Assembly (NCBI GenBank): GCA_963709585.1
Contig: CAVPXI010000008.1
Coordinates: 20,258-84,257, forward strand
From: Candidatus Dormiibacterota bacterium
Lineage (GTDB): Bacteria; Chloroflexota; Dormibacteria; Aeolococcales; Aeolococcaceae
Reading direction: 5' to 3'
DNA length: 64,000 bases
The position numbers were made by a program, and so were the translations under genes. The notes beneath the pieces are model-generated. The model made no database searches. It saw nothing but the letters and a program-made list of their open reading frames with translations, and was not told the DNA's origin. Below, in pieces: positions 36,083-64,000 of the stretch (position 1 is its first letter; every line of letters starts with the position of its first letter).

Positions 36083-36175
36083 GGAGGCGTCTGGGCACCT
36101 GGTGGGCTTCCTGATCTTCAAAATCAGTGTGACCGAGTATCCCGGTCAAGCGGGTTCGATTCCCGTCCGCCTCCG
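36083..36175 (+). tRNA. selC: tRNA-Sec (anticodon UCA)
   Basis: Acceptor GGAGGCG/CGCCUCC; anticodon arm CUGAU-CUUCAAA-AUCAG (UCA); long variable arm GACCG-AGUAUCC-CGGUC; T arm GCGGG-UUCGAUU-CCCGU; discriminator G. CCA is not encoded. Lies between selD and selA. Confidence 0.85.
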
Positions 36176-36183
36176 CCGATTCG

Positions 36184-37506: not shown

Positions 37507-39353
37507 TCGCGACCGCGGGGCACGTCGACCATGGGAAGTCGACGCTGGTGCGGGCGCTGACCGGGATGGAGCCCGACCGGTGGGCCGAGGAGCGCCGCCG
37601 CGGCATGACGATCGACCTTGGTTATGCGTGGACCACGCTGCCCTCGGGACAGGAGATGGCGTTCGTCGACGTTCCCGGCCACGAGCGCTTCACGACCAAC
37701 ATGCTCGCCGGGGTGGGCCCGGTCCCCGCGGTGTTGCTGGTCATCGCCGCCGACGAGGGCTGGTGCGCGCAGACCGACGAGCACGTGAGAGCGCTCGACG
37801 CACTCGGGGTCCGTCACGGCGTCGTGGCTGTGACCCGCTGCGACCTGGCCGATCCCAGCCCGGCGATCGAGCAGGCGGCCGAACTCCTTGCCGCCACGAC
37901 GCTGGCGGGCATCCCGGCGGTGAGCGTCTCCGGTCAGACCGGGGCCGGCTTGGCGGCTCTCCGAGCCGCGCTTGACGTGCTCGCGAGCGAGCTGCCCCTG
38001 CCCGACCCCGAGGCGCGAATCCGTCTCTGGGTGGACCGCTCGTTCACCGTCCGGGGGAGCGGCACCGTGGTCACCGGAACGCTCGCGGCCGGAACCCTGC
38101 GCCGGGGCGACCTCCTCGAACTTCACAACTCCACGGTGTTCGTGAGAGCCCTCCAGCAACTCGGGCACCCGATGGACCACGTGACCGCGCCCGCTCGCGT
38201 TGCTGTGAACCTCCGCGGCGTTGCCCGTGAGGACGTCCGGCGCGGCGACGCGCTGCTGACACCCGGAGTGTGGCGGCGGACCAACGTGGTGGATGCCCGT
38301 GTCGAGGGCGGGGATCTCCCGAGCCATGTCGTGCTCCACGTGGGGGCGGCCGCCGTGCCCGCCAGAGTCCGCAGGCTGGACGCGCTCACCCCGGCCGGCT
38401 CATTGCGGGGCTTGTCGCCGAACTCGTCGCCTGACTCTTGGCCGGGCTCTAGCCGGAACTCGTGCGTCGTGCGGCTGATGCTCGACGCGGCGCTGCCGCT
38501 TCAGGTTGGTGACCGCGTGCTGCTCAGGGATCCAGGTCGCCGTCAGATCATCGGCGGCGCGACGGTGCTCGACCCGGCGCCACCTGCGCTGCGGCGGCGC
38601 GGCGCCGCCAAGGCCCGCGCCGCGTCGCTTGCCGAGGACCGCGGCACTCCGGACGCCGGTGCGGAACTGGCCCGCCGCGGCGCCGTCAGCCGCTCGTTTT
38701 TGCGCGAGATCGGCGTCCCAGTCGGTGACACGCCGCCGCCCGGGGTGATTTCGTCCGGGTCGTGGCTTGTCACCGAGCCACTCTGGGAGCAATGGCGACG
38801 CAGGCTCCGCGGTGCCGTCGAGCGCCGACCTGGCTTGCTGCTCGACGCCGGTGTGAGTCATGCGGATCTCGCGCGCGCCCTCAAACTCGAGGAGCCGCAC
38901 CTCCTGACCGCGCTGCTGGATTCGTGCCCCGAGCTCGAGGACGTCGGTGGCCGGGTCCGCCCACGTGGCACCGCGCCGGCACTCCGTCAGGACGTGGGAG
39001 ATGCGGTGTCGCGTCTCGTCATGTCGCTCCTCGCCGAGCCTTTCGCGGCGCCGGACCAGCAGCGGATCGCCGCTCTCGGGCTGGGACGGCGCGAACTCGG
39101 CGCGGCGGCTGCGGCGCGAGCCATCCTGCTGTTGCCCGGAGACATCGCGTTGCTTCCCAGCGCGCCGGACGTCGCCGCCGAACGCCTCCGCGAATTGCCG
39201 CAGCCATTCACGCTCTCGGCGGCGCGCCAGGCGCTCGGCACAACCCGTCGCGTTGCGGTCCCGCTTCTCGAGTATCTCGACCGAATCGGCGTCACCGAGC
39301 GAATGGACGGGGACCTGCGCCGGTTGCGCGTGCCCGCGGCGGTCGGCGCCTAA
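37497..39353 (+). CDS. selB: selenocysteine-specific translation elongation factor
   Basis: GTPase motifs AGHVDHGKSTL, DVPGHERF and TRCD, with C-terminal winged-helix domains. Overlaps the selA stop. Confidence 0.9.
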   Translation: MQVIATAGHVDHGKSTLVRALTGMEPDRWAEERRRGMTIDLGYAWTTLPSGQEMAFVDVPGHERFTTNMLAGVGPVPAVLLVIAADEGWCAQTDEHVRALDALGVRHGVVAVTRCDLADPSPAIEQAAELLAATTLAGIPAVSVSGQTGAGLAALRAALDVLASELPLPDPEARIRLWVDRSFTVRGSGTVVTGTLAAGTLRRGDLLELHNSTVFVRALQQLGHPMDHVTAPARVAVNLRGVAREDVRRGDALLTPGVWRRTNVVDARVEGGDLPSHVVLHVGAAAVPARVRRLDALTPAGSLRGLSPNSSPDSWPGSSRNSCVVRLMLDAALPLQVGDRVLLRDPGRRQIIGGATVLDPAPPALRRRGAAKARAASLAEDRGTPDAGAELARRGAVSRSFLREIGVPVGDTPPPGVISSGSWLVTEPLWEQWRRRLRGAVERRPGLLLDAGVSHADLARALKLEEPHLLTALLDSCPELEDVGGRVRPRGTAPALRQDVGDAVSRLVMSLLAEPFAAPDQQRIAALGLGRRELGAAAAARAILLLPGDIALLPSAPDVAAERLRELPQPFTLSAARQALGTTRRVAVPLLEYLDRIGVTERMDGDLRRLRVPAAVGA

Positions 39354-40384
39354 GGGCGCCGGACGCCGCCGTCCGTGATTTCATTCAGACGCTGACGTTG
39401 CGGCACCACGGTGTAACGGGGGTCGCGCGCCAACTCCTGCCCGGCTTCGAAGATGGCGAAGCGGGTACAGGCCGCACCAGCGAGGAGCGCCGCACCCGAG
39501 ACTCGCGCGGCTCGCTGATGACGGCCGAGGATGACCGCTCCCAGGGCCCCGCCGATCGTGAGCGCACGGCTCGCGTCGAGAAGCCGTTTGGCCGTCCCGT
39601 GGCGAAGCGTCTCGGCGCTGAGGCCCATGTTCCGCACCATCTGCGCCTCCATGGCGAGCGCCATCGCCGCCCCGCCCACGCCCATACGGCGCGCCGGCGC
39701 CGCCTGCTCGACACAGGTGCCGAGCATGGCGAAACCTCCCGCGGATGCTGCCGCGGACGCCACGAACACGAAGGGGAGCTCACCACGGGCGGCGTGCCAG
39801 CCCGGGGTCGCCGTGTTGGAGAGGAGGACTCCGGTGTACGAGGCAAGCGCAGGCGCAAGCATGGCCGCGATCAGTCCCGCGGGCCGCGCGCCCAGAGTGA
39901 GAAGCCGGCCGGCGATCGGGACCCGGCGCGGCAGCATCTCGGCCACCTCCGCCGCTCCGGCCAGGCTCGCCAGCGGAGCGTACGTTGCGAGCACCCACGT
40001 GCCCATCGACATCGGCGACGTGGGTTTTGCCGTTCGCAACATGTTCAGAAACCGCGTTGGTTTGCCGAGATCGTGGATCAGAGCGGCGGTACCGGCTGCG
40101 GCGCCGGCGACCGCGCCGATGCGCGCCACCCGGCGCAACTCCGGCAGATTCCCGAGGTCAGCGCCGGCCGCGAGCAGGGACGACCCGGCCGCCAGCCCAC
40201 CGAAAAAGAGGTACGCGGGGATGTCGGCCTTCCACGGCGAGGCCTTCACCACCGGGCGTCCGTAGTAGGAGGTGAAGGTCGCCGGCGGGACCATCAGCCG
40301 CTCGCCGCCGCGACCGCCACCGCCCCGGCGCCGGCGTCGGGGCGCGGTGTCCGCCGGGTGCGTCGCCCGCGCCTCCACGGTCAC
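39350..40384 (-). CDS. formate dehydrogenase membrane anchor subunit, NrfD/PsrC family
   Basis: SYYGRPVVKASPWKADIPAYLFFGGLAAGS plus about 8 TM helices. GTG 40384 overlaps the Fe-S subunit stop (GTGA). Confidence 0.8.
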   Translation of the reverse strand: MTVEARATHPADTAPRRRRRGGGGRGGERLMVPPATFTSYYGRPVVKASPWKADIPAYLFFGGLAAGSSLLAAGADLGNLPELRRVARIGAVAGAAAGTAALIHDLGKPTRFLNMLRTAKPTSPMSMGTWVLATYAPLASLAGAAEVAEMLPRRVPIAGRLLTLGARPAGLIAAMLAPALASYTGVLLSNTATPGWHAARGELPFVFVASAAASAGGFAMLGTCVEQAAPARRMGVGGAAMALAMEAQMVRNMGLSAETLRHGTAKRLLDASRALTIGGALGAVILGRHQRAARVSGAALLAGAACTRFAIFEAGQELARDPRYTVVPQRQRLNEITDGGVRRP

Positions 40385-41295
40385 GAGCGGGCCCGGACAA
40401 ATGCCGCCGCCGCACCGGCGAGCAGAGTCACACCCGCGATCGCGGATGTCCGCCACATCGCCGGGAGGTCCCGGGTGGTGACCACCGGATCGGGCGGCAA
40501 CCCATAGACCTCGGGCTCGTCCAGGAGCAGGAAGAACGCTCCAGCTCCGCCGATACCATCATTCGGGTCCGCGCCGTAGAGCCTGGCGTCGGCGACGCCC
40601 GCGGCGTGCAGCTTCCCGACGCGGTGCTGGGCGCGGACTCGCAGCTCGTCGAGGTCGCCGTACTGGATCGACTGTGTCGGGCACGCCTGCGCACACGCCG
40701 GAGTCATGCCCTCGCCAAGGCGGCCGTAGCAGAGCGTGCACTTCTGCGCGATGCCGACGTTCCTTGCGCCGGCCGGGCCTTCGCGGCGGTCGATGACACC
40801 GAAGGGACAAGCCGGAACGCAATACCCGCAGCCGTTGCAGATGTCGTCCTGGATGACCACAGTCCCGAACTCGGTGCGCGTCAACGATCCGGTCGGGCAG
40901 ACGTCGAGACACGCGGCGTGCGTGCAGTGCTTGCAGACGTCCGACGACATCAGCCACCGGATGCCGGCCTCCACTCCCACCGGAGCTGCGTTCTGGCCAG
41001 GTGTGGCGGCAACCACGGGGAGCGGCGTGAAGCCGGTCGCGTCCGCCGGGCGGCGCGGCTGTTCGATGAAGGCAACGTGGCGCCAGGTGCTGGCACCGAG
41101 TGCCCCGGTGTTGTCGTAGGACATCCCGAGCATCTGCAGTCCGTCCTCGGGGATGCCGTTCCACTCCTTGCACGCCACCTCGCACGCCTTGCAGCCGATG
41201 CAGATGGAACTGTCCGTGAAAAACCCCTTGCGCGGCGGGGCATCGGTCCAGCCCGCGGCCAGGGCCGGGTCGGGCGCGCTCGACCATCGCTCCAT
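40381..41295 (-). CDS. formate dehydrogenase iron-sulfur (4Fe-4S) subunit
   Basis: CIGCKACEVACKEWN, CKHCTHAACLDVCP, CNGCGYCVPACP and CTLCYGR cluster motifs. The ATG at 41295 overlaps the alpha-subunit stop by 1 nt. Confidence 0.85.
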   Translation of the reverse strand: MERWSSAPDPALAAGWTDAPPRKGFFTDSSICIGCKACEVACKEWNGIPEDGLQMLGMSYDNTGALGASTWRHVAFIEQPRRPADATGFTPLPVVAATPGQNAAPVGVEAGIRWLMSSDVCKHCTHAACLDVCPTGSLTRTEFGTVVIQDDICNGCGYCVPACPFGVIDRREGPAGARNVGIAQKCTLCYGRLGEGMTPACAQACPTQSIQYGDLDELRVRAQHRVGKLHAAGVADARLYGADPNDGIGGAGAFFLLLDEPEVYGLPPDPVVTTRDLPAMWRTSAIAGVTLLAGAAAAFVRARS

Positions 41296-44200
41296 CAAGG
41301 TGGGTCCCCGGGTGGCGTCACCCGCACGGTCCCGGTGTCGATGGTCAGGCGCGCGCGGCGCCGGTACACCTCGACGTAACGTGGCAGCGCTGCCCCGGTG
41401 GGGCGCCTGCCCGGTTGGATGTCGCACGACGCGGCTTTCGACTCCTGGATGTGCACGTTGGGATCGAGCGAGACCCCCATGACGTCGTTCGCCGAATCAC
41501 CGCTGACGATCGCCCCGCCGCCGCCCACCCCCCAGTGGTACGGGAGGCCGATCTGGTGGATGGTGCGCCCGCCGACTGTGAGTGGGGTCATCCGCTCGGT
41601 GACCAGCACCCTCGCCTCGATCGCGGTTCGCGCCGTGACGATGGTTGCCCAGCCGAGGTGCTCGAGGCCGCGCTCGGTCGCAAGCTCTGGCGAGACTTCG
41701 CAGAAGAACTCCGGCTGCAACTCGGCGAGGTACGGCGACCAGCGGCTCATGCCACCTGCGGTGTGATGCTCGGTGAGCCGGTACGTGGTCACGATGTACG
41801 GAAACACGTCGGAGCCCGGCTCCGGTGGCGACGGGCTCGTGAGATTCTCGTTGCGCGGAAACATGTCGCGCGTGGGGTTCGATTGCTGCGGATGCAACGC
41901 GTTGCGAAGCGGCGATTCGACCGGCTCGTAGTGCACCGGCAGCGGGCCGTCGAGCAGTCCGCTCGGGGCGTAGAGCCATGCCTTCCCGTCGCCCTGCATG
42001 ATGAAGGGGTCGTCACCTGCGAGCCCGTCGGGCCCGCCGACGCCCGGCTCGGGACGAAACGAAGGCGCCTTGGTCGCCTGGAAGTCCGGCACGTCGTGCC
42101 CGGTCCATTTCCCCGCGGCCTCGTCCCACCAGACGTACGCTTTGCGTTCGCTCCAGGGCTTGCCTTCCGGGTCGGCCGACGCGCGGTTGTAGAGAATCCG
42201 CCGGTTCATCGGCCAGGCCCACCCCCAGTCGGGTGCGACCCACGACTGCTCCGATCCCGGCTTCCGCCTCGCCGACCGGTTGACGCCGTCGCTGTAGACA
42301 CCCGTGTAAATCCAGCAGCCACCCGATGTTGAACCATCCGCCTTCATCTCGATGAAGCTGCTGAGCATCTGCCCGGCCCTCTCTCCGCTGAGGTGGCGAC
42401 CGTTGATCTCGCGCAACACCGCCTCAGCATCGGGCTCCTCGCCGGCGAGCAGCGGATAGTCCCACGCCAGCGTGCGCAGCGGCAGGTCGCGTTCGAGCGG
42501 TGACGTCTCAAGACGCTCCCGAAGCAGCCTGCCGAGGTGATAGAAGAAGTGGAGCTCGCTGCGACAGTCGCCCGACGGCTCGACTGCCTTGTGGTGCCAC
42601 TGGAGCAGGCGTTGAGTCTGCGTGAAGGTGCCGTCCTTCTCCGTGTGCGCCGCGGCTGGGAGGAAGAACACCTCGGTGCCGATATCCTCAGTGCGCATCT
42701 CGCCGGTGGCGATCTCCGGACCGTCCTTCCAGAACGTGGCGGACTCGATGAGATTGAAGTCCCGAACCACCAGCCACCTCAGGTGGGACATCGCGAGCCG
42801 CTGCAGCTTGCCGTTCGCGGACCCGACTGCGGGATTCTGCCCGAGCAGGAAGTAACCCTCGACCTTCCCGTCGAGCATGTCCACGATCGTCTGATAGTTG
42901 CTGTGGTCGCCACTGATGCGCGGCAGCCATTCGAAGCCGAAGTCGTTGTCCGGCGTGGCAGCGTCACCCCACCATGCTTTGAGCAGGCTGACGACATATG
43001 TGTCCGCTGCCGTCCAGAAGCCCTTCTGTCCGTCGCTTTTGATCGACGCGAGGTACGCGTGGAGATCCGCGTGCACCCCCGCCTTCGGCATCGGGAGATA
43101 CCCGGGGAGCAGATCAAAGAGCGTTGGAATGTCTGTCGATCCCTGGATGCTCGCGTGGCCGCGGAGCGCGAGGATGCCGCCGCCCGGACGCCCGATGTTG
43201 CCGAGCAGCAGCTGGATGATGGCCGCACCGCGGATGTACTGGACCCCGACGGAGTGCTGTGTCCACCCCACCGAATACACCCACGCTGTCGTGCGTTCGC
43301 GACCACTGTTGGCGGTGACCGCCTCGCACACCGTCGCGAACTGCCCGGCTGGGACACCGCAGATGCGCTCGACCACCTCGGGGGTGTACCGCGCGTAGTG
43401 ACGCTTGAGAATCTGAAAGACGCAGAAGGGATCCTGGAGGCTTTCATCGCGCCGGACCCCCCGTGGGGCAGGGCTGTGCCGCGGCCACCGAGCTCGTGGC
43501 CACCCCCGCCCGCGTGCGCCGCCGGCTGCCTGCCCGGCACCACCCGCGAGCCCGCCGCCGCGGCCATCTCCATCCCCTCATATGCCCAGCTGGTGGTGTC
43601 ATACGTCCCGGCCGTCGGGTCGAAGCCGGAGAAGAGGCCGCCGAGCTGGTCGGCGTCCTGGAAGTCCTCACTGACGATCGTGGCCGCGTTGGTGTAGCGC
43701 ACGACGTACTCACGGAAATACTTCTCGGTGCTGAGGATGTAGTTGATGATTCCGCCAAGGAAGGCGATATCGCTGCCGGCGCGAACCGGCACGAACACGT
43801 CGGCCATCGCCGATGTCCTGGTGAAGCGCGGGTCGATGTGGATGATCGTCGCGCCGCGCGCCTTGGCCTCCATGACCCACTGAAATCCAACCGGGTGACA
43901 CTCGGCCATGTTCGAGCCCTGGATGACGATGCAGTCAGCGTTCTGCAGGTCCTGCTGGAAGGTCGTGGCTCCGCCCCGTCCGAACGATGTCCCCAGACTG
44001 GGGACGGTGGAGCTATGTCAAATACGGGCCTGGTTCTCGACCTGCACGACCCCGATCGCTGTGAAGAGTTTCTTGATCAGGTAGTTCTCTTCGTTGTCCA
44101 GGGTGGCGCCGCCGAGGCTTGCGATTCCGAGCGTGCGGTGCACCGCGTCTCCGCGCGCGTCGGCGTCCTCCCAGGTTCGGGTGCGAGTGTCGATCAATCG

Positions 44201-52574: not shown

Positions 52575-54035
52575 ATCCCATAAGTTGTTGTCAAGCTAAT
52601 CCGGCGCTGCCATGCGCCGGATCGAAGTCCTTGTCGCCGCGCCACACGCCCCAGACGATGGCGAGCGCCTTGCTCATGCAGTGACCAAGGGAGTTCATCG
52701 CTGACTTGCCCGCGGCCCGCTTGCGAGCGTAGTGGGCGCGGATGATCGGGTTGTGTTGCACGCCGACCACCGCCATCCGGTACGCCGCCGCACGCAGATA
52801 CGAGTTGCCGGTCTTGGCCATGGTCCAGCTCGTCTCGGGGTTCGCACCCTTCTTCCCTGAACTCTGCTCCTTGGGATGCACGCCTGCGTAGGCGAGCAAC
52901 TGGTCGACATCGCTGAAGCGCCAGATGTCGCCGATCTCGGCCATGAGTGTGGCCGCGGTGGACGGCCCGACACCGGGAATCGAGAGCAGCCGCTGCGACA
53001 CCTCGCCGTCGAGCAGGGAGGCGACCCGGGTGTCCGCGCTGGCGATCTGCTGGTCGAGCAGGTCGTGCTGCGCAATCAGGAGGCGCATCGCGAACCCGAC
53101 CTGCTGCGCGAGTTCCGGCGCAGCCACCGAGGTCTGAGCCAGCTGCTTGAGCTGGCCGGCCTTGAGCGGTCCGATCGCACGGCCACCACCGCCCGGACAC
53201 TTGAGCCGAGCCAGGCGGTCCTGGTGCATGCGCGCCACGGCCGCGGCGGTCGGCGCGTGGCGGAGCACCGCCAGGGCGCTCACGCAGGTCGGGTCGTCCC
53301 AGACCTCGCGCAGCTCAGGAAAGCCGATGTCCACCAACCGCTGGATGCGCTGGCAGACCTGGGCCTGCTCACGCACCAAACGCATCGCGAACCGCGCCGC
53401 CTCCTTGAGCTCGGCCCCCACCAGGGGCTCGCTGATCCGCGGCTGGTCGTGCGTTCCCAACGCCGCCAGTGTGCGCGCGTCGGCCGGGTCGCTCTTGCTC
53501 CGCTGCAGCCGGCTCTTGGCGAAGTACTTGGCCTGCAACGGGTTCACCACCGCCACCGGATACCCCTGGCGACGCAGGTGGCTGGCCAGGTTGAACCAGT
53601 AGTGGCCGCTCGATTCCATCACCACCACCTCGATCGGCGCTTCCTGCTTCGTCATCCACGCGTCCAGTTCGCCGAAGCCCTTGCGCTTGGTGGTGATGGT
53701 GAGCACCTTCCGATCCGCCTCGCGCTCACCCTGGCGACACACCGCCGCCGCGCACTTGTATGCCCCCACGTCGATCCCCACCGCCAGGCTCATACGCACC
53801 TCCTGTGTCGGGTTGCGACCCCAGGGGTCCTCGCCTTGCTTCGTCGCCGCGTGGGCTGATGCTCCATCACCGGTCACCGCCGTCGGATCCCAATCACCGC
53901 TCGAAGACGAAGCACGAGGGCCGGTCACTAGCTCCATCGGTCCCGTCGCCGGATAGCTATGCGCCGGTCTCCCCGTCGAGGTCAGATTCCCCGCGATTCT
54001 GACCCTGCCAGGAGATATATCAGCTATAAGCGGTC
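52575..54035 (-). mobile_element. IS110-family insertion sequence (ends approximate)
   Basis: The transposase gene has only about 16 nt to the neighbouring gene on its 3' side and a non-coding leader of about 240 nt on its 5' side. No terminal inverted repeats were seen, as expected for IS110. The boundaries are guesses. Confidence 0.55.
52591..53793 (-). CDS. IS110-family transposase (DEDD/RuvC-like recombinase)
   Basis: ATG 53793 preceded by AGGAGG. N-terminal LAVGIDVGAYK...VVMESSGHYW and C-terminal LLSIPGVGPSTAATLMAEIGDIWRFSDVDQLLAYAGVHPKEQSSGK (Transposase_20 region). Confidence 0.9.
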   Translation of the reverse strand: MSLAVGIDVGAYKCAAAVCRQGEREADRKVLTITTKRKGFGELDAWMTKQEAPIEVVVMESSGHYWFNLASHLRRQGYPVAVVNPLQAKYFAKSRLQRSKSDPADARTLAALGTHDQPRISEPLVGAELKEAARFAMRLVREQAQVCQRIQRLVDIGFPELREVWDDPTCVSALAVLRHAPTAAAVARMHQDRLARLKCPGGGGRAIGPLKAGQLKQLAQTSVAAPELAQQVGFAMRLLIAQHDLLDQQIASADTRVASLLDGEVSQRLLSIPGVGPSTAATLMAEIGDIWRFSDVDQLLAYAGVHPKEQSSGKKGANPETSWTMAKTGNSYLRAAAYRMAVVGVQHNPIIRAHYARKRAAGKSAMNSLGHCMSKALAIVWGVWRGDKDFDPAHGSAGLA

Positions 54036-54137: not shown

Positions 54138-54596
54138 TCAGCCGCAGATGAACACGACAGCCGCACCCGTCTCCAAGCCACCGTACCCCTTGGCTGAGGT
54201 CGCCATGAAGGTCCAGGTATCCCCGCAATTGTTTGTGACGATGGTCACCTTCACGGACCTGCCGGGTGCGAGCGTGCCGTTGGCGGGAGTTACTGTGGAC
54301 TGAGTTCCGCCCTCAGGAACGATGAATTGTGGGAACCAATTCAAAGCGGCGCTAGAGCTACTTGGGTTGCTCAGGGTCACGTGGCACGTCGCTGTGAAGA
54401 TGGGTGTGCCCGGGGATTGGGTGCAGTTGGCGGGAGGGATGACGTCAAACTGGAGCCCGACCGCGCGCGGACTAACCTCCAATCGTGGGGCCGTTGAGGC
54501 GGTCACGGTTCCGCCTGCCTCGGCCAGCATCATGCCGATTGCCAGTAACGGCAGCACCCACAGGACGCGCCTGATTTGCTTCCTGACCATGGTCAT
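54138..54596 (-). CDS. secreted hypothetical protein
   Basis: Internal ATG at 54596: MTMVRKQIRRVLWVLPLLAIGMMLAEAGG (signal peptide) followed by a beta-rich, Cys-containing region of about 120 aa. Confidence 0.5.
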   Translation of the reverse strand: MTMVRKQIRRVLWVLPLLAIGMMLAEAGGTVTASTAPRLEVSPRAVGLQFDVIPPANCTQSPGTPIFTATCHVTLSNPSSSSAALNWFPQFIVPEGGTQSTVTPANGTLAPGRSVKVTIVTNNCGDTWTFMATSAKGYGGLETGAAVVFICG

Positions 54597-54684
54597 CGGC
54601 TCTGCTGCCGCCGCCGAAGGCTTGACTTTGCGTGGCAAAGTGAGGTAGCTTTGTGGTGCAAAGTCACCCAAGGAGATCCCAACC

Positions 54685-55359
54685 ATGGATAACACCCGTG
54701 ATCTGGAGCAGGCCGCGACCGCCGACAACGGCGGTGCGCTCGACCCGCGCGAAGCAGCGCGGCTGCTGGAGCAGACCAACCGAGAGGCCCGGCGTCAATT
54801 CTCCATGAACCCGCCGCTGGCGACCGCGCTGATGGGGGTGCTGATCCTTTTCGCCTACGGCGCTCTGTGGCTCTCGGTGCTCGGACAGCAACCCTACGCC
54901 GGACCGAACCTCGGCGTGATCGCGCTGGTGTACGTGACGGTCGCCGTCGCGGCCGCCGTGACCGTGAGGATCCACCACCGCGCAACCGCCGGCGTCAGTG
55001 GACCCTCCACGAGACAGCGCACGGTCGAGGGGATTGCGGTCCTCGTGTCCATCGTCGGCGGCAGCCCCGTGATTCAGGGCGCGATGAAGGAGTACGGCGC
55101 CAGCGCTGCCATCGTCTACGGAGTGATCCCGGCCGCGGCGCCGCTGATCATCATCGGCACGACCCTCGTGGGCATTGCCGCTAGCAAGTCCGACTGGCCG
55201 ATGTTCGGCACCGCTCTCGCGGTCGTGACCGGGGGGATCGTCGCCGCGTTCGTGGGGCCGATCGATGCGTGGCTGGTCGCCGGGATCAGCCTGTTCATCG
55301 CGGTGGTCGGCTACGCCGCTGCCACCACCTCGCAGGGCCGCGCAGCCGGCCGCGTATGA
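54685..55359 (+). CDS. hypothetical membrane protein (4-5 TM)
   Basis: Hydrophobic helices after a polar N-terminus. Its stop overlaps the start of the following HTH gene (ATGA at 55356-55359). Confidence 0.6.
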   Translation: MDNTRDLEQAATADNGGALDPREAARLLEQTNREARRQFSMNPPLATALMGVLILFAYGALWLSVLGQQPYAGPNLGVIALVYVTVAVAAAVTVRIHHRATAGVSGPSTRQRTVEGIAVLVSIVGGSPVIQGAMKEYGASAAIVYGVIPAAAPLIIIGTTLVGIAASKSDWPMFGTALAVVTGGIVAAFVGPIDAWLVAGISLFIAVVGYAAATTSQGRAAGRV

Positions 55360-55652
55360 CAGAGGAAGCGCTGGACCCGCTGATCCATGCGCCGGCCCGT
55401 CTGCGGATCGTCGCGACGCTGGCCGCGCTGCCCGAGGGCGACGCGCTCTCATTCACCAGGCTGCAGGACATGCTCGAGCTGACGCCCGGCAACCTGATCA
55501 CGCACGTGCGAAAGCTCGAGGACGCCGGCTACCTGACGACCGAAAAGACCGGCAACGGGACGGCGTCACGCACCTCGATCGGCCTCACGGCGCGAGGCCG
55601 GGCGGCGCTGGAGGCCTACACGGCCGCCCTGCGGGGCTTGCTAGGCGTCTGA
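55356..55652 (+). CDS. small winged-helix transcriptional regulator
   Basis: MTEEALDPLIHAPARLRIVATLAALPEGDALSFTRLQDMLELTPGNLITHVRKLEDAGYL. A 98-aa wHTH protein, translationally coupled to the membrane protein. Confidence 0.75.
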   Translation: MTEEALDPLIHAPARLRIVATLAALPEGDALSFTRLQDMLELTPGNLITHVRKLEDAGYLTTEKTGNGTASRTSIGLTARGRAALEAYTAALRGLLGV

Positions 55653-55672
55653 ACCGTCCCCGAGTTCGCGCG

Positions 55673-55778
55673 AGCGGGAGACGAGGCTCGAACTCGCGAC
55701 CCCTACCTTGGCAAGGTACGCTTCTCATTCTGTATTCGGGAGGGGCTGAAATTGGCCTCTAAGCCACTACTTACCCCC
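55673..55778 (-). other. tRNA-Gly(GCC)-derived ~106-nt element, copy 1 (no CCA, internal hairpin degenerate)
   Basis: The 3' 45 nt equal a tRNA-Gly 3' half (anticodon loop UUGCCAA, T arm GCGAG-UUCGAGC-CUCGU, acceptor CUCCCGC). Ungapped homology to 62512-62617 runs over the whole length. No canonical D arm. Confidence 0.5.
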
Positions 55779-55988
55779 AGTTTCCACGGGGATCCACGCT
55801 GACCGCACGGGACGCCCCGCTGGCCCTACGGGCGTCCACGCTGAACACAACATCGGGAATACGGGGCCCATCTCGATGTTGCACAGCTGAACCGACTCCG
55901 CGACCCGAAACTCCGACCGGTTGCGGGGTACGCGCCAATCGTTGGCCGGGAACTGGTGGCGCGCCGCCGGCGCCTCCACGCCCTTCCA

Positions 55989-57022
55989 TCATGGTGCCGT
56001 GCCCCAGACCGGGCCTCGGGGGAAGATGTTGGTGAGTGGCGTGGGATGCCAGATCACCACCGGGTGTGAGCCGTCGGCCTGCATGATCACTAGCCCAACG
56101 AAGTGGGTTCCATCCTGAAACTGGAGGAAGGCGATCATCGTGCCATCGGGCGACCAGGCGGGGTCCTCCGCCCAACTGGGGTCAGACTCGTGGGTTAGCG
56201 CTGTCAGCCCGCTCCCATCAGAGTTAACGACGTAGACGTTCCGGTCCGAGGGAGCAGTATCGGAATCGGGTGCACCGAAAAGGAGCTTCGACCCATCCGG
56301 CGACCAGCGCGGTCTCCAAGCGTCTGCTGAGGTCGGCGTCACTTTGCGAAGGCCCATTCCGTCGATCCCAACAATGTAGATCGTTCCATCGCCACCATCA
56401 CTCCCATCCCGAACGAAGGCGAGTTTCGTTCCATCGGGCGAGAAGTCCGGTAGCTGGTCTCCGCCGACAGCCGACGCCGGCGGCGTGGTGATCCGAACAA
56501 TGTGGCTCCCATCGGCGTTCATGAGATAGATCCCAGTCAGATGTCCACTTAGATCGAACCGGTCGAATGCAATGCGCGTGCCATCCGGCGATATCGCAGG
56601 ATCACCGTCATACACATGGATGGGCTCGGATGTGAGTTGCCGGATGGAGCCACCATGTGAGTCCATCCAGAACAGATTGCTCGACGTCGCATTCGCGCTG
56701 GAAGCATTAGGAGGAAAGGTGCTATCGAAGACAATCCGATCACCCGCTGCGGTCCACGCCGGCTCGCCGACACGTCCGGCGGTGACGTTGGTGAGCATGC
56801 GCAGGCCGGTACCATCGGGCTCGATGGTCAGGATATTGCCATCGTCTCCAGTTGGGCCGAACTCCAGGGTGAACGCGATCCGGCCGTGCCCCGGAAGTCC
56901 ACTCGCGGATGAAGGCGTTGTCGCGATCGGGGTGTTCGCATTCGAGGTGCGGATTGGGGCGGCGAGCCGCAGGCAACGAGCGCCAGCAGCGTAGACGCCG
57001 TGAAGGCGGTCATCAGCTTCAT
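55989..57022 (-). CDS. TolB-like beta-propeller lipoprotein; frame disruption as sequenced at the G4 run 56956-56959
   Basis: MKLMTAFTASTLLALVACGS lipobox in one frame. ...PIRTSNANTPIATTPSSASGLPGHGRIAFT...DGTGLRMLTN and PD40-type repeats (PxWSPDGxxIAF) follow in another. Adding one nt to the run joins them. Confidence 0.7.
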
Positions 57023-57212
57023 GTCAGGACCTTCAAACAAGTCGCCGTCGGTGTTGGGTTGATCACGCAACGAGCCCGGCGATCGCGTCGACCCTTCGAA
57101 CCCGTCGACCGCGATCCGCGTTGCCGCCCCTCAACCTCGCCAACCTGGCGAATTCGGGTCTGAATGTCGGCCTCTACGGCTGGCACGGCGACGCTCCCTG
57201 CACACGCATCTC

Positions 57213-58871
57213 TCAGCATCCAAAGCACTGATCAGGCAGGTTGCGAGCGGTGGTGCTGTTACTCAGCGTCACGGGAAAGGCGGTGAAGAGACCTCCCCCA
57301 TGCGCCGTGATGCCAGGGCTCGCCGTCAACGTGTTGCCCGACACCGTGCTACCGGACAGTGTGAGCTGGACCGGCGGGGTGGCGCAGGGGACCGGGCCGT
57401 TCCAGATGCCGCCGCCCTGGACCTTCCCAGAAGCGCCTCGCGCCGTCCCTGTGTTGTTCTCGACGACTGTGCTTTGCAGCATCAGCAGCTCGTCGCTCTG
57501 GATGCCGCCGCCCTCGACGATCGCCGAGCCGCTCGTCGTCGTCGCGGTTACGCGATTGTCAGCGATGACGCTATCGCTGATCGTGGTCACTGGGTTGGTG
57601 CCGCCAATGAATGCCCCACCAGCGGCCTGGGCAGTCCCGGCCGATGAGGTGGCCTCGACGCTGTTGGAAGTGAATCGAGTGTTGCGGATCGGGCCAGGCG
57701 CATTCATCTCGCCGGCGCCAGAGTTGGCAAAGGCACTGCCCGATGAGCCAGCCGATGTGCTCGCGCTGACGCTGTTGCCGCTGAAGGTGTCGTTGGACAG
57801 CACGAGCGCGAGCGGGCCATCGGAGTGAAGGCCGCCCGAAGTCGGCGGTTGCGTCACCAGCCGTATTCGTCGCCCTGACGGAATTCTCGGAGATCGTGGT
57901 GTCACTTATAGTTCCGGAGGTGGAGGTGGAGACATGAACGCCTCCGGCGATCGCGCCCAGCCGCCGGTCGCTGATGCAATCCGTTGGGTTCGTAAACGGC
58001 AGCGAAGACGAAAGCTCCGCCGCGTTGCCCGTCACGAAGTCGTGGTTCATCGTCAGTGTCGCGCCCTCAACATAGATGCCGCCGGAGTCAACGAAGCGAC
58101 CGTTGGGCGCGGTCGTGCTTGCATGGTTGTTGCTGATCATGGAATCGTTGACCACGAGGGTGCCCGTCGGCTCGACCATGATCCCGCCTCCATTTGCGTC
58201 GCTGGCGAGCGTCGAGAGCCCGGATGCGGAGCCGATCAGGTTCTCGCTGACCGTAGTGTGGGCGAGCGTCAGCCTGCCCCAGTCGTCGATCCCGCCACCG
58301 TCCGCTTCGGCGTAGGGGCAATTGACGTTGCCCGGGCACGGAGATCCGATGGGGAGAGTTCGGGTCGGGGCGGCCCGGTTCCCGGTGATGACGCTGTTCG
58401 TGATGGTCACGGTGGCCCCAGTGCCGGCCTTCGACTGCGGGATCTCGATGCCGCCCCCTTGCGCGATGACACCGGAATAGCTCGCAATCCCGACCCCGGG
58501 GTTCGACTGGGGGCTCGAGCGAGTCACTCCGCCGGTGATCGTCACGCCGGCGATCGAGACAGTCGGCTCAGTCGGCGCCTCGTACATGCCGATAGTCAGG
58601 ACGCTGTTCCCACCCCGGATGATGGTCGACGTCGCCCCTGCCCCGATGATCGTGACGCTCACGTTGACGGTGACTTCGCCCGAGAACGTGCCCGAGTTCG
58701 ATCCGGATCGTGTTACCCGCGTGGGCTGCAGCGATCGCCGCCTTCAGCGTTGAGTAACAGCCTGAACTCGCCGCCAACGCACAAAGCGTTCTTGGCAGGT
58801 GCCGGGTTGCAAGCCACACCCCCCGCGACAAGGACCCCGCAGGCTACCGCAAGAAGGCGCTTGGTTCGCAT
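57213..58871 (-). pseudogene. secreted right-handed parallel beta-helix repeat protein, at least 3 frame disruptions as sequenced
   Basis: Four frame segments: signal peptide MRTKRLLAVACGVLVAGGVAC...; then CYSTLKAAIAAAHAGNTIRI; then SNSGTFSGEVTVNVSVTIIGAGATSTIIRGG...(GGGI/N-x-[ST] repeats); then ...GGLHSDGPLALVLSNDTFSGN...PDQCFGC. Junctions lie near 58779-58790, 58695-58712 and 57831-57846. Confidence 0.65.
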
Positions 58872-58884
58872 CAGATCCACCCCG

Positions 58885-59193
58885 TCATCGCAGTCTGCCA
58901 GTTGTGTCTTCTGTGCCCCCATCCGACCAGCGCCACTCGATCACGCGCTCGATGGGGATGGACGCGTGCTGGCTGACGGCTCGTATCTCAGGTTCATTGC
59001 CGTGGAAGAGGCAGAAGACGGTCTCATCTGCCGGCATGAGGATTGAGCCGACGAACCAGACGTTCGCGCCCGCGCAACGCAGTTGTGTGGCTGCAGCCTC
59101 GATGCGTCGTGCTGCGGTGGCGAGTTCTTGGTCATTGATGCCGGGCCAGTAGCACTCGACCAGGTAGCTGTTGCCGGCGCGGTTCGCGAGCAT
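58885..59193 (-). CDS. DUF4242-like small protein
   Basis: YLVECYWPGINDQELATAARRIEAA...VFCLFHGNEPEIRAVSQHASIPIERVIE resembles the DUF4242 family as I recall it. First gene of the minus-strand operon. Confidence 0.5.
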   Translation of the reverse strand: MLANRAGNSYLVECYWPGINDQELATAARRIEAAATQLRCAGANVWFVGSILMPADETVFCLFHGNEPEIRAVSQHASIPIERVIEWRWSDGGTEDTTGRLR

Positions 59194-59310
59194 GCGTTCG
59201 AGGGTACGGGCGCGGCCACCGGAGAGGAATCGGGTGTTTCCCTACTTCTGCGAAGGTCGCGGCGGCCTGAGGACTTTACGGTCGCCAACCACGTGTGCAA
59301 GAGTGCGCCC

Positions 59311-62108
59311 ATGCCGGACGGCATCCTGGGACGCGAGCAGGAGCTCATGGTTGCGGCAGGGCTCCTCGGAAGGCTGGAACACGGGCCGGCTGCCCTCGTC
59401 TTTGCAGGTGAAGCGGGGATCGGCAAGACGACGCTGTGGCGGGAGGCCGTCGATCGTGCTCGGGCGGAGCCGGTGGTGGCCCTTGTTGCCTCCCCCGCAG
59501 CCGCGGAGGCCGCACTAGCTTTTGCCGCCCTCGCCGACTTGCTTGAGCCGGTGGTTGACGGACTGCTGCCTGAGCTCAGCGAGCCTCAGCGCCACGCCCT
59601 GGCGATCGCGTTACTCCGCGAAGGTCCTGGCTCCCGACGTCTCGACCAGCGCGCCGCATCGGCAGGCGTGCTTTCGATATTCCGAATGCTGGCCGGGACA
59701 AGCAAGGTGCTTGTGGCGATTGACGACCTCCAGTGGCTCGACCAGCCATCTGCCCATGTGCTCGGCTATGTAATGCGCCGCCTGGGGGATTTGCCGGTGG
59801 GGGTGTTGGCTTGCGAACGGCTAGGAGAGGTGAGGGAGCTTCCGCTTGATTTGCGCGCCGGCCTGGGCGAGGAACGCTTCGTTGGGATGGAGCTGGGGCC
59901 GCTCAGCCTTGCGGCCTTGCACGAACTCTTGAAGGAGCGGCTGGGCAGGTCCTTTTCGCGGAGGACGCTCACCCGCATCGAGCAGGTGGCCGGAGGCAAT
60001 CCCTTCTTCGCCCTGGAGATCGGTCGCGCCTTGCGGGAAGACCTGCCGTCTGGCGCTCCAGCGGTGCCGATTCCGGAGAACCTGCGCCAACTCATCGAGG
60101 GTCGTATGGCTGGCCTTCCCAAAGCCACGCGCACGACGCTGCTCGCCACAGCGTCACTTCCCGCACCGACCGTTGATGTCGTGGCCTCGGCAACCGGCAC
60201 GCTGCCGTCAAACACACGTCGGGCTCTTGAGCGTGCGGCCGCAGCCGGACTGGTGAGGTTGGATGCCTCCAACGTCCGCTTCTCTCACCCGCTTTACGCA
60301 GCCGTCGCCTACTCATCAGCGGTCCCCAGCGAGCGCCGTCGGGCTCACAGGCGGCTCGCTCTGGTCAGCACCGACATCGAGGAGCGAGCCCGTCATCGTG
60401 CGCTGAGCGCGGAAGGTGACGATGAGGAGGCGGCTGCGCTCCTCGAGGCTGCAGCAGAGCACGCTCTGTCGCGGGGCGCGCCGGAGACCGCAGCTGAGCT
60501 GGCAGACCACGCGCGGTTGCTGACACCGCGGGATCAGCATGCCCGGATGCAGCGGCGCAGCATCCAGGCAGCCGAGTACCGCTTCCACGCCGGTGAGCGA
60601 GAGCCGGCACGGTTGCTACTGGAGGAGGTCCTACGTGAAACTCCCGCCGGGCGCGTGCGGGCGGATGTGCTCGTCCTGCTCGGTGAAATCCGATATCACG
60701 AGAATAGTTTTCCTGAAGCGATTCGTCACTTCGAGGAGGCGTTGGAGCATGTGGGCGACGCTCTGGGGGTGAGCGCTGCGATTGAAACCCAACTCGCGTA
60801 CAGCTACAACGCGATCGCCGACTGGGCCGGCGCTGAGCGGCATGCAAGCCGCGGGCTGGAACTCGCGGAGCAGGCCGGTGAGCCCGGCGTCCTGGCGGAA
60901 GCGCTCGCCGTCCACGCCATTGCGACCTTCCTGCTGGGGCGGGGTCTCGATCGAGCGCAACTCGAACGAGCACTCGAGTTGGAGGATGCTCAGCGTCAGG
61001 TTGTCGTCGAGATGCGACCGAGCCTGATCGCCGGATGCCTGGAGCTGTATCTAGGCGAACTGGATCGATCGATCGCCTATCTGTCGGTCCTTCGCGAGCG
61101 TGCCCTGGAGCACGGCGCAGAGAGTGATCTCGTCTTTGTCAGCGGCCAGCTGGCGTTGGCGCAGTGCTGGAAGGGCAACCTCGGTGCTGCCGCGACGTAT
61201 GCGGACGAAGCCATCGACACAGCGACGCATATCGAAAGCGACTCCGCCTCTGCTCCGCGCTTGCGTTCGGCGCCGTAGCGGCTGCATTTGCGGGTGACGT
61301 CGAGGTGGCGACTAGCAGAGCCGCGCAAACGTGCGCCCTAGCAAGTGAGACGGGATACCGCATCGGGATCATGTGGGCAAGTTGGGCACTCGGCGTCCTT
61401 GAGCTCGCTCGTGGCGACCCTCAAGCCGTCGATGCCGTCCTCGGGCCGTTGGCGACGATGATCGAGCAGGAGGGTCTCGGGGAGCCAGTGCGCGCGATCC
61501 ACCTCGCCGATGAGATCGAAGCGTTGATCGCCCTCGGGCAACTGGGTCGTGCTGAGCGACTGACGGCCATGCTCGAGGAGACGGGAACGCGCCTCGAGCG
61601 ACAGTGGACTCTCGTACAAGCCAACAGATCCCGCGCGCTGCTCTTGGCGGCGCGGGGCGAACTAGATGCAGCCTCCCTGGCGGCCAGCCAAGCAGTTGCG
61701 CTCTGCGCTGATCTTGAACCCGGGCTCGAGGTCGCGCGTTCGCTGCTTGTCGCAGGTAGCGTCGAGCGGCGGCGGCGGCGCAAGCGAGCGGCGAGCGACA
61801 TGCTGCAGCGGTCACTCGAGATATTCGAGCAAGCGGGCGCGCGCCTATGGGCGGAGAAGGCGCAGAGAGAACTCGACCGGGTCGGAATCCACCGGGTAGC
61901 AGGGAAGCAGCTGAGCGCCGCGGAGCAGCGCGTCGCCGAGCTTGCCGCGTCGGGCTTTACGAACCGCCAGGTCGCCGGCGCGCTGTTCATGAGCCCAAAG
62001 ACGGTGGAAGCGAATCTCGCCCACGTCTATGCCAAGCTGGGCATACGCTCACGCGCCGAACTCGGCGCCCGAGTTAGTACTGTCCTTTTGGGGGACCCGC
62101 AAAGGTAG
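59311..62108 (+). CDS. large LuxR-family regulator (N-terminal AAA/P-loop ATPase, TPR-like middle, C-terminal LuxR HTH; LAL/MalT-like); frame disruption as sequenced near 61241-61255
   Basis: Internal ATG at 59311: GREQELMVAAGLL...LVFAGEAGIGKTTLWREAV (Walker A), VAIDDLQWLD (Walker B). C-terminal LSAAEQRVAELAASGFTNRQVAGALFMSPKTVEANLAHVYAKLGI. Two track ORFs join if one nt is added. Confidence 0.8.
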
Positions 62109-62508
62109 GGGGCGCTTGTCAACGCTGACAAGTTGACACCCGTGGCGCCGGTGGCTTTGGCCATTTCCAGCACACGCGGTTGCGCTTGCCGGAAGGTGAA
62201 AGGAGCTACAGGCGCTTCCGGCCGCGTGTTCTTGGCCGGCGCGCTGCTGTGGACCATGGGACCGGGACAAGACTTGGGCTTTGTGTCCGATCGGCGAGGT
62301 GAAATGCAGGTGTTGTAGTACGTGATGACCACAGCACTCGGAGGAGCGGCGGACTTCAAGCGCCCGACCCTGCGCGGCTCCGCTCGAGGGCCCTAACACC
62401 ACTTTCTCCAGGTAGTGCGTCTAGGAATTCCTGGACACGTACTCTCGGCGAGTTTCACGCGGTCGGCCGCCGACCGAAGCCGGGCCACTCCGTATTCAAA
62501 TCGCGGAG

Positions 62509-62617
62509 TGGAGCGGGAGACGAGGCTTGAACTCGCGACCCTTACCTTGGCAAGGTCCAGCTCCAATTCCGAATACGCGAGGAGCTGAAAACGGCCTTGC
62601 GGCGCCTACTTCCCCGC
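62509..62617 (-). ncRNA. tRNA-Gly(GCC)-derived ~109-nt tRNA-like element, copy 2 (encoded CCA, pairable acceptor ends, extra 7-bp hairpin)
   Basis: RNA: GCGGGGA-AGUAGGCGCCGCAAGGCCGUUUU-[CAGCUCC-16 nt-GGAGCUG]-GACCUUGCCAAGGUAAGG-GUCGCGAGUUCAAGCCUCGU-CUCCCGC-U-CCA. The 5' GCGGGG pairs with the 3' CUCCCGC. Not a canonical cloverleaf. Confidence 0.45.
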
Positions 62618-62928
62618 TGGATCGATGCTGTTCGACGCGGAGTTGACGGCGGGCGACGTCAAGCCACGACGACCTGTCGGTGATCGAGTGAGAGCACACT
62701 CGCGTGTGCGAGGACGCTCGTAGCTGAGAAACTGTGACTAACGTGGTGCAGGGCGATGGGTAGGGTTCGGATACAAGTTGCTCGACGCGGAACTGTCGAC
62801 TAACAAGTTCGTCGGGGTCACCAGGTCCACCGCGCAGCAACCAAAGCGATCCTGACGGTCCCGCGCCAATGGCGCGAGGCAGCAGCGGCCGCCGACGTGG
62901 ACCCAAGATCACAGAGAACCCACGAGGC

Positions 62929-63630
62929 CTATGCACTCGTGGCGAGTTGCCGGACCGCAGCTCGAAGGAGGTCTTCCTCCGTGTCCTCGGAGAGATTGGA
63001 TGGCCGTCCGAACACCAGGCTGGTGGCCGGGAGTACCAACATCGCGGCGACCGGGTACGTCGCGATGTGCAGATGCAGGGCTGGTGGACGCGGGCGCATC
63101 GACCGGAACTCCTCGTAGAGGCGCTGGCGACGCTCGAAGCGCTGCTCGACGGAGGTATCGAGATCGAGTGGGATGGTCGACGATGTAATGGCCCGCCAGC
63201 GGTCGAGACATGTGGCGAGAGCGATAAGGGTCCTAGCGTCTCCGGGCCATGCGGCAAGAATGTCTCCCGCTTGTCCGTGCTGTCGAAGTGCTGCCTGGAC
63301 TCGAGGATCGGCGAAGTTGGGCAGCGCAGATGGCGGAGATGCTCGGAACGTCTGAAAAAGTGACGCCTGAGCCTGAGCGTGCCGTGCGACGAGCTCCAGG
63401 AGCCATGCGTGCCATGTGTCTCCGTTTACCCCGGCCGCTCGAAGGCTGCCGTTGCCTTCGGCATGTTCCACAAATGGCTCAACCCGAAGGCCGTCATCGA
63501 GCAAAGTCCACACTGCGAAAGCAACAGGTCCACTATCCCATTCCTCCCAAGTCCATCGATCCGGGTCGCTAGCGGAGAACACGTCGTCAGTTTGGAGGTT
63601 CGCGAATGCTCGCGTGGGCTCGAGTGACAT
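62929..63630 (-). CDS. hypothetical protein
   Basis: 233-aa ORF with protein-like, Trp-rich composition (WTWEEWDSGPVAFAVW...). No motif I recognise. Confidence 0.5.
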   Translation of the reverse strand: MSLEPTRAFANLQTDDVFSASDPDRWTWEEWDSGPVAFAVWTLLDDGLRVEPFVEHAEGNGSLRAAGVNGDTWHAWLLELVARHAQAQASLFQTFRASPPSALPNFADPRVQAALRQHGQAGDILAAWPGDARTLIALATCLDRWRAITSSTIPLDLDTSVEQRFERRQRLYEEFRSMRPRPPALHLHIATYPVAAMLVLPATSLVFGRPSNLSEDTEEDLLRAAVRQLATSA

Positions 63631-63743
63631 TTGCGGACCCTGGCCTGGTCGACGAGCGTAACGGGTGAATCGCGCCGACCTTCAAGACCCGTTGATACCC
63701 TCCCCACGCCCTACCAACCGTCGGCGCCCAGAGGAATGTCGAC

Positions 63744-64000
63744 ATGACCTACGCGCTCCTGTTCGACTTCGATGGCGTGCTAGTCGACTCCACCCCTGCC
63801 TACCGTGCGGCCTGGTCGGAATGGGCACGAACCTATCGAGCAAACGAGGCGTTCATTTGGGCAGACGCACACGGACGACGACCTGATGACATCATTCGTC
63901 GCGTCGCGCCCCGCGTTGACTTCTCAGAGGCGCTTCTGACGTTCGATCTGCTCCTTAGCGCCGCAATCCCTGGGCGCGTGACTCCGTTGCCGGGTGCCCT
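63744..64000 (+). CDS. HAD-superfamily hydrolase, N-terminal part; 3' end lies outside the window
   Basis: ATG 63744 preceded by GAGGAA. MTYALLFDFDGVLVDSTPAY carries HAD motif I (DxDGxxxDS). The frame is open to the window end and is not in the ORF track. Confidence 0.7.
   Translation, partial: MTYALLFDFDGVLVDSTPAYRAAWSEWARTYRANEAFIWADAHGRRPDDIIRRVAPRVDFSEALLTFDLLLSAAIPGRVTPLPGA

Follow-up and report, generated by a model that had tools for sequence, protein, structure and literature searches.

Probable site-specific integration of mobile DNA into a tRNA-Gly(GCC) gene of an uncultured member of Candidatus Dormibacterota

A 64,000-nt stretch of a Candidatus Dormiibacterota genome (assembly GCA_963709585.1, contig CAVPXI010000008.1, positions 20,258 to 84,257 of the forward strand; hereafter the window) carries two related units derived from tRNA-Gly(GCC), copy 1 and copy 2, which bracket a 6.8-kb segment (Table 1). 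Very probably, the two units record the splitting of a chromosomal tRNA-Gly(GCC) gene at its anticodon stem/loop by site-specific integration of mobile DNA, leaving remnants of attachment (att) sites and a history of serial integration. Judged by its sequence, copy 1 is an attR-type junction in which an arm of the element adjoins the displaced native 3' fragment of the tRNA gene, and in copy 2 the tRNA 3' half is a duplicate of imported origin, flanked by conserved sequence on both sides, an arm upstream and a block downstream.

The evidence carrying this reading comes from assemblies of the same species in which the site is empty. Conspecific contigs were retrieved by exact-protein match to the 224-aa membrane protein and the HTH_34 gene product encoded downstream of copy 1. 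Three of them are independent assemblies: L088 (a Logan contig), L096 (an ENA k141 contig) and L097 (a JGI contig). L088 is 100% identical to window 54262-55718, and L096 and L097 are 98.2% identical to window 54598-55718. In each of the three, ARAGORN identifies an intact canonical 72/73-nt tRNA-Gly(GCC) at the position of copy 1, and similarity to the window ends at 55718/55719. Past 55718, L088 continues into GCGGGAGTAGCTCAGTGGTAGAGCAC, which supplies the 5' half; the resulting tRNA-Gly(GCC) is canonical, with a standard cloverleaf and no encoded CCA. Upstream of the breakpoint, L096 and L097 contain sequence and genes found nowhere in the window, the L096 flank upstream of the intact tRNA reading GGGCCTTTTGATCTCAGC.... 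The intact gene of these island-free conspecifics corresponds to 55673-55744 of the window, where its 5' 26 nt are replaced at 55718/55719, and a 16-mer of the native tRNA-Gly 5' half is absent from the window. The intact gene and the shared breakpoint together identify 55673-55718 as a displaced native 3' tRNA fragment, and the same breakpoint marks the sequence from 55719 to at least 64000 as an insertion. Among more distant relatives carrying the membrane protein and HTH gene pair (L089-L093), no tRNA-Gly was found at the corresponding site.

The synteny comparison with relatives lacking the segment, which the initial annotation of this DNA had proposed, yields three contigs without the insert and with an intact tRNA-Gly at the copy 1 site. 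Two of the interpretations offered in that annotation (remnants of related elements integrated serially at a tRNA-Gly 3' end; a tRNA-Gly gene that was disrupted, together with a relic) are borne out by the shared breakpoint and the intact gene; its headline, an intact tRNA-like RNA, is not. Its description of copy 1 as the degenerate copy is inverted, since the 3' half of copy 1 is the native fragment and that of copy 2 is imported. Copy 1 lacks CCA because the native tRNA-Gly gene encodes none.

The arrangement corresponds to the tDNA (tRNA gene) islands defined by Islander (Hudson, Lau & Williams 2015, PMC4383910; Williams 2002 sublocation classes). A displaced tRNA fragment in the same orientation lies at the distal end (55673-55718, the 3' 46 nt of the intact gene), and an empty-site allele is present in three assemblies that are 98.2-100% identical. 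The core is a same-orientation direct repeat of 46-47 nt ending at the tRNA 3' end, as a tDNA island predicts. The inner segment, 55719-62508, has the form of a cis-mobilizable element (CIME), being bounded by core repeats with arm and P'-like sequence, lacking a recombinase, and followed by more inserted DNA upstream.

The two copies align without gaps over their full length with 83/106 identical positions, distributed as 43/45 at the 3' end, 27/40 in the next stretch and 13/21 at the 5' end. These counts agree exactly with those of the initial annotation (two differences in the 3' 45 nt; 27/40 upstream), whose positions, minus-strand assignment, CCA site and gapless alignment were likewise reproduced. 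The 43-nt core occurs twice in the window, with 0.00 occurrences expected from 100 shuffles. A repeat search lengthens the homology between the copies to 131 nt at 75% identity (55672-55802 vs 62511-62641), so that it passes beyond the 5' end of the supposed RNA. In BLAST searches of phage and plasmid records, the last 48-55 nt of copy 2 are 81-94% identical to annotated tRNA-Gly genes, and the sequence upstream of the tRNA part has no match in either collection.

Table 1. Features of the split tRNA-Gly(GCC) locus in the window and of the related modules in metagenomic contig L079.
Feature	Sequence	Position	Strand	Remarks
224-aa membrane protein gene	window	54685-55359		downstream of copy 1 and convergent with it
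HTH_34 gene	window	55356-55652		directly downstream of copy 1 and convergent with it
Copy 1	window	55673-55778	minus	no encoded CCA
Displaced native tRNA-Gly(GCC) 3' fragment, attR-type core	window	55673-55718	minus	anticodon stem (5' strand) through discriminator base; no CCA
Type-1 arm (P-arm-like) with 'insert' region	window	55719-55853	minus	stands in place of the tRNA 5' 26 nt
Three direct repeats	window	55782-55844	minus	inside the type-1 arm; exact 21-nt period; TCAGCGTGGAnnCCCGTrG
E1 cargo (inner 6.8-kb element)	window	55854-62280	both	Pfam scan
PD40 beta-propeller protein	window	55989-56798	minus	Pfam
Beta-helix protein	window	57213-58662	minus	two overlapping frames (57213-57905, 57571-58662); Pfam
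AAA_16-TPR-LuxR regulator	window	59083-62108	plus	two overlapping frames (59083-61278, 61164-62108); Pfam
Conserved non-coding 228-nt block, P'-arm-like	window	62281-62508	minus	directly 3' of the CCA of copy 2
Copy 2	window	62512-62617	minus	CCA at 62509-62511
Element-borne tRNA-Gly(GCC) 3' half, attP-like core	window	62509-62556	minus	encoded CCA; 2/45 differences from the native fragment
Type-2 arm	window	62557-62706	minus	tRNA 5'-end relic GCGGGGAAGTAG and non-conserved 7-bp hairpin (62558-62587)
E2, start of the next inserted segment	window	62707-64000		upstream of copy 2; leaves the window end
233-aa gene	window	62929-63630	minus	in E2; unknown function
HAD-hydrolase gene, 5' end	window	63744 onward	plus	in E2
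Module A	L079	398-470	minus	short form; GTGGGGGTAAGTAG joined straight to GCCGGACCTTGCC...; 'insert' of ~44 nt missing
Module B	L079	1352-1555	minus	type-2 arm and intact tRNA 3' half with CCA; 91% identical to window 62506-62709
Module C	L079	3796-3954	minus	diverged type-1 arm
Module D	L079	4787-4956	minus	type-2 arm 90% identical to that of copy 2; homology ends after CCTTGCCAAGG

Both arms contain a motif, GCGGGGAAGTAG in type 2 and GGGGGTAAGTAG in type 1, that resembles the native tRNA 5' end GCGGGAGTAG. The triplet of 21-nt repeats in the type-1 arm recurs in four related modules described below (L064, both modules of L094 and L079 C), and the repeats are candidate arm-type binding sites for a recombinase. 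Within the 228-nt block, a near-perfect palindrome, GTGTCCAGGAATTCCTAGACGCAC (62415-62438, minus strand), is conserved in L094 and represents a possible protein-binding site.

As an observation apart, each 21-nt repeat is equivalent to 7 codons, and two open frames run across the repeats (window 55782-55853, L064 5867-5945), ending at the TAA and TAG of GGGGGTAAGTAG (for example, ...SVDPRGNWG*). The last repeats of the window and L064 differ at 3 positions, 2 of them synonymous in that frame, and the type-1 arm may contain a small open reading frame (ORF). The 7-codon period and the position of the stops, in the invariant AAGTAG, suggested this candidate; against it, the two arm types do not have conserved reading frames.

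Related modules combining an arm with a core were sought in other genomes. A pattern scan of one genome per species returned 73 loci, 72 of which are not homologues. The majority are ordinary tRNA-Gly genes preceded by TTTCAGC; three, from other phyla (L007, L012 and L016), consist of a 3' half alone, joined to unrelated DNA on the upstream side, and represent ordinary displaced fragments. The sole true homologue, L064, belongs to a Candidatus Dormibacteraeota metagenome-assembled genome. It is 87% identical over 182 nt to window 55672-55853, includes CCA, and has unrelated flanks, its neighbours being two-component-system genes and a Flp pilin gene with no integrase among them. A metagenome scan added L076, L078 and L079, the last with four same-orientation modules within 5 kb, between which lie small unrelated genes, including those for a VanX-like peptidase and a globin, and no recombinase. 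CCA is also encoded in the cores of L079 A, L079 B and L094 b, as in that of L064.

Comparison of these modules points to exchange between their parts. The type-2 arm of copy 2 is 90-91% identical to those of L079 B, L079 D, L076 and L078, and in the last three the similarity stops after CCTTGCCAAGG. In L079 C and D, the tRNA 3' half is swapped for a common decayed module, GTCTGGTATTCGAT. Type-2 arms accompany an intact 3' half in copy 2 and L079 B and the other, decayed 3' module in L079 D, and type-1 arms accompany an intact 3' half in copy 1 and L064 and the decayed module in L079 C. These swapped pairings indicate that arms and 3' modules have been reassorted, with the breakpoint in the anticodon region.

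Contig L094, a relative of L064, has two same-orientation modules within 0.7 kb, of which module a is decayed, and the type-1 arm of the window is 77-82% identical to the two. Window 62281-62590, which takes in part of the arm as well as the core and the block, aligns with L094 4146-4451 at an overall identity of 83%, rising to more than 90% over the first ~115 nt of the 228-nt block after CCA. In L094 b, a type-1-like arm, the core and the 228-nt block are contiguous, and the flanking genes are unrelated to those of the window. This order matches the attP arrangement predicted for a circularised form of the 6.8-kb segment 55719-62508. Between the two L094 modules lies a 3' fragment of tRNA-Ser(CGA), extending from the anticodon stem to CCA (~3913-3985, plus strand), so that this array holds att relics of two kinds; together with the decayed module, this relic suggests that the loci are graveyards of integration events. 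The outer edge of the type-1 arm coincides with the point at which synteny between L064 and L094 breaks. Neither the arms nor the P'-like block matched anything in phage, plasmid or IMG/VR collections, and pattern scans of viral contigs gave a single match, L001, a normal tRNA-Gly with AAGTAG upstream by chance.

The family also permits an assessment of copy 2 as a functional RNA. Under this alternative, copy 2 and its relatives would form a tRNA-derived structured RNA ending in CCA, with a hairpin in place of the D arm. Copy 2 encodes CCA, has a canonical T arm and a canonical anticodon loop, and its 5' GCGGGG can pair with the 3' CUCCCGC; the 7-bp hairpin CAGCUCC/GGAGCUG announced in the initial annotation is present at 62558-62587; the family is kept in other genomes, and several copies are trailed by hairpins. 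However, ARAGORN called neither copy, its sole tRNA in the window being tRNA-Sec at 36083-36177, and Rfam matched neither at the gathering score or at E<=10, with no match in the tRNA clan, as expected from the earlier remark that standard tRNA finders may miss both. Eight family members were aligned and the pairs of the structure put forward in the initial annotation were counted. Hairpin pairing holds in only 50% of cells, and L079 B has three uncompensated changes there. The acceptor stem is paired in 79%, but in registers that differ between the two arm types, or the 5' strand pairing is absent. The T stem is invariant across the eight and hence uninformative. The covariation check suggested for the 7-bp hairpin gave a score of 0.082 against a shuffled mean of 0.089, with 352/500 shuffles scoring at least as high, and fold z-scores were -2.2 for copy 2 and -0.95 for copy 1. 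No sigma-70-like promoter was found upstream of either copy.

Conservation, moreover, overruns the proposed RNA on both sides, by ~90 nt upstream and 228 nt downstream of CCA. L079 A has lost the insert, L079 C and D carry a different 3' half, and the 3' half of copy 1 is demonstrably a piece of a normal gene. With neither recognition by a tRNA model nor novel helices backed by covariation, the reading of copy 2 as an intact tRNA-like RNA into which a hairpin was inserted is not supported, and a functional structured RNA is very improbable. Readings of the units as tmRNA-like, YrlA-like or allo-tRNA/Sec-like RNAs were tried and rejected on the lack of any model match and on the empty-site evidence; a further ground is that the 'anticodon arm' shares 87% identity with E. 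coli-type tRNA-Gly.

Under the preferred reading of a split tRNA-Gly gene, a normal tRNA-Gly(GCC), convergent with the HTH_34 gene ending at 55652, would have been cut at the anticodon stem/loop through recombination by an integrase of the tyrosine type that either acted in trans or has since been lost. Copy 2 would be a hybrid attP-like junction in which the core separates the P arm of an outer element from the P' arm of the inner 6.8-kb one, as results when the tRNA that one element has regenerated becomes the target of another, related element. Such a structure has been described for accretion at a single att site (PMC5704250) and for the tandem islands at ssrA of Dehalococcoides (PMC3146451). 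The functional tRNA thus regenerated, uniting the native 5' half with an element-borne 3' half, would lie beyond the window end, and the GCGGGGAAGTAG-like 5' end would be a relic of the tRNA 5' half within the attP arm and not part of a functional RNA. With the integrase in trans or lost, the 6.8-kb segment would be a decayed or cis-mobilizable island, and its integrase-less cargo fits such an island rather than an autonomous one. The split beta-helix and AAA_16-TPR-LuxR genes of this cargo are either pseudogenes of a decaying island or the product of assembly indel errors.

Several observations weigh against integration of this kind. Neither the window, including its 6.8-kb segment, nor the surroundings of any related module yielded an integrase or other recombinase, in accordance with the earlier statement that none lies between or next to the copies. 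Pfam scans of large ORFs at 26-64 kb yielded no integrase, leaving the integrase that Islander looks for absent from this interval, and a six-frame regular-expression scan for tyrosine and serine recombinase motifs returned nothing. The regenerated tRNA-Gly (GCGGGAGTAGCTCAGTGGTAGAGCAC joined to a core reading ACCTTGCCAAGG...) is not in the window, which therefore does not show the head of the array. In L079 and L094, modules lie 0.3-2.2 kb apart, which leaves too little room for autonomous elements. The sequence downstream of most modules is not conserved, the P'-like block being common only to copy 2 and L094 b, and the outer edge of the module forms a discrete boundary between L064 and L094, for which a simple arm model has no need. 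Finally, L088 by itself might reflect a de Bruijn mis-join across the 47-nt repeat, an objection that L096 and L097 answer.

The compact arrays bring in a different explanation, which is judged unlikely, namely that the modules are recombination sites of a trans-mobilised gene-cassette system in which the tRNA gene serves as attI, as in an integron. Integrase-less cassettes of 0.3-7 kb, each with one attP-like module of ~190-430 bp, would have been serially inserted at tRNA-Gly by a recombinase whose gene lies elsewhere. Each module would consist of an arm with three 21-bp repeats, a tRNA 5'-end relic and a tRNA-Gly 3'-half core. It is equally doubtful that Dormibacterota possess trans-acting integron-like capture, with the arrays of the window, L079 and L094 being active and not decayed islands. 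The absence of a recombinase from six or more inter-module segments examined, the dense one-orientation arrays of L079 and L094, a cargo of small unrelated genes (VanX-like peptidase, globin, Na/H exchanger), and modules that are 82-91% conserved across genomes with unrelated cargo are all consistent with cassettes, as is the comparison of L094 with L064, which differ by one extra unit of gene plus module at the outer edge of the module. Island decay and deletion, through CIME formation and accretion (PMC5704250), would nevertheless give an equal picture, and L094 a, L079 C and L079 D are visibly decayed. Neither a dedicated integrase nor an array head is seen, the sample amounts to ~10 modules at 5 loci, and the comparison with integrons finds no recombinase and modules that are tRNA-derived direct repeats with internal 21-nt repeats, not attC-like palindromes.

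An IS110-family transposase gene (DEDD_Tnp_IS110 and Transposase_20 domains; 52591-53937, minus strand) lies 1.7 kb from the island boundary. Its presence, with another IS110 transposase beside a related cassette gene in L086, bears on a further explanation, in which the modules are a tRNA-derived repeat resembling a miniature inverted-repeat transposable element or a short interspersed nuclear element, mobilised for instance by the IS110 transposase, one copy of which hit the tRNA gene. The repeat unit of ~180-200 nt has discrete edges, and short-read contigs L087 and L098 break at the unit, inside the core, as expected at a repeat. Against this, the 64 kb contain only two copies, which share a locus and an orientation; copy 1 runs colinear with the native tRNA at its 3' end, and what the empty site reveals is an exact replacement of the 5' half instead of a whole-unit insertion with target duplication; and terminal inverted repeats are lacking. 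No link of the IS110 transposase, or of its bridge RNA, to the tRNA-derived modules is supported, and a transposed repeat of this type is hardly credible.

Beyond copy 2, the 233-aa gene of E2 forms a discrete block of ~730 nt (62918-63648) that recurs at 81-90% identity, with unrelated flanks, in six contigs (L081-L086), in one of which (L086) it adjoins an IS110 transposase. Motifs like the 5' end of the gene (CCAGGGTCCGCAAATGTC...) recur in nearby intergenic regions of L081, L082 and L086, and by these features the block behaves like a single-gene mobile cassette. The six contigs contain no arm-and-core modules and share no synteny with the window.

Two further features of the window were recorded. 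A selenocysteine locus occupies 36083-43376, with tRNA-Sec (36083-36177), selA (36184-37506) and selB (37497-39353), followed after selB by NrfD-like and molybdopterin oxidoreductase genes, which probably encode a selenoprotein formate dehydrogenase. A tandem 2.2-kb duplication at 13305-17204, with blocks up to 98% identical, holds two paralogous genes for a branched-chain amino acid ATP-binding cassette (ABC) permease (13305-14651 and 15487-16851).

For annotation, the split-gene reading makes the sequence from 55719 to at least 64000 horizontally acquired DNA inside a tRNA-Gly gene, and the two 'tRNA-like' units become att sites and a tRNA gene fragment instead of RNA genes. It provides single-nucleotide island boundaries and an attB sequence for the uncultured phylum Candidatus Dormibacterota, both of which are usable for genotyping island-bearing and island-free populations in metagenomes. 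The only aspect that may merit more work is the occurrence of integrase-less arm-and-core modules in dense arrays in several genomes.

A tRNA-Gly gene also serves as the attB of mycobacteriophage L5, with a core of ~43 bp running from the anticodon region to the 3' end and with flanking arm-type sites. L5 is a complete temperate phage encoding Int and Xis. The search of the phage collection found no sequence similar to the arms of the window.

Islander islands share with the present locus a split target tRNA, a same-orientation 3' fragment (~46 nt here) at the far end of the insert, a crossover in the anticodon arm and an empty-site allele, here conspecific; tandem arrays and anticodon-centred attP sites are already known among them (PMC4383910). 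Unlike those islands, for each of which Islander demands an integrase, the 6.8-kb island and the window contain none, the window shows no regenerated tRNA, and the arm beside the core keeps a relic of the tRNA 5' end. CIMEs and the accretion of elements at one att site have been described for ICESt1/ICESt3 of Streptococcus thermophilus (PMC5704250). As at the present locus, CIMEs are delimited by att sites, carry genes for neither integration nor transfer, and form tandems with related elements where a target gene has its 3' end, the internal junctions being hybrid att sites. The present case differs in that no functional partner integrative and conjugative element (ICE) or integrative and mobilizable element (IME) was identified, and in concerning Dormibacterota and another target.

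The ssrA islands of Dehalococcoides (McMurdie et al. 2011, PMC3146451) resemble the locus in being multiple tandem islands, downstream of a single small-RNA gene and delimited by direct repeats of its 3' end, in having a short conserved motif beside each repeat, and in including some islands without an integration module, proposed to be CIMEs. There the target is the transfer-messenger RNA (tmRNA) gene, the repeat measures 20 bp and many islands carry the serine integrase DsiB, whereas here the target is tRNA-Gly, the repeat measures 46 nt and no recombinase is seen. The mechanism is well known, and novelty is limited to an integrase-less island and a family of att modules in an uncultured phylum.

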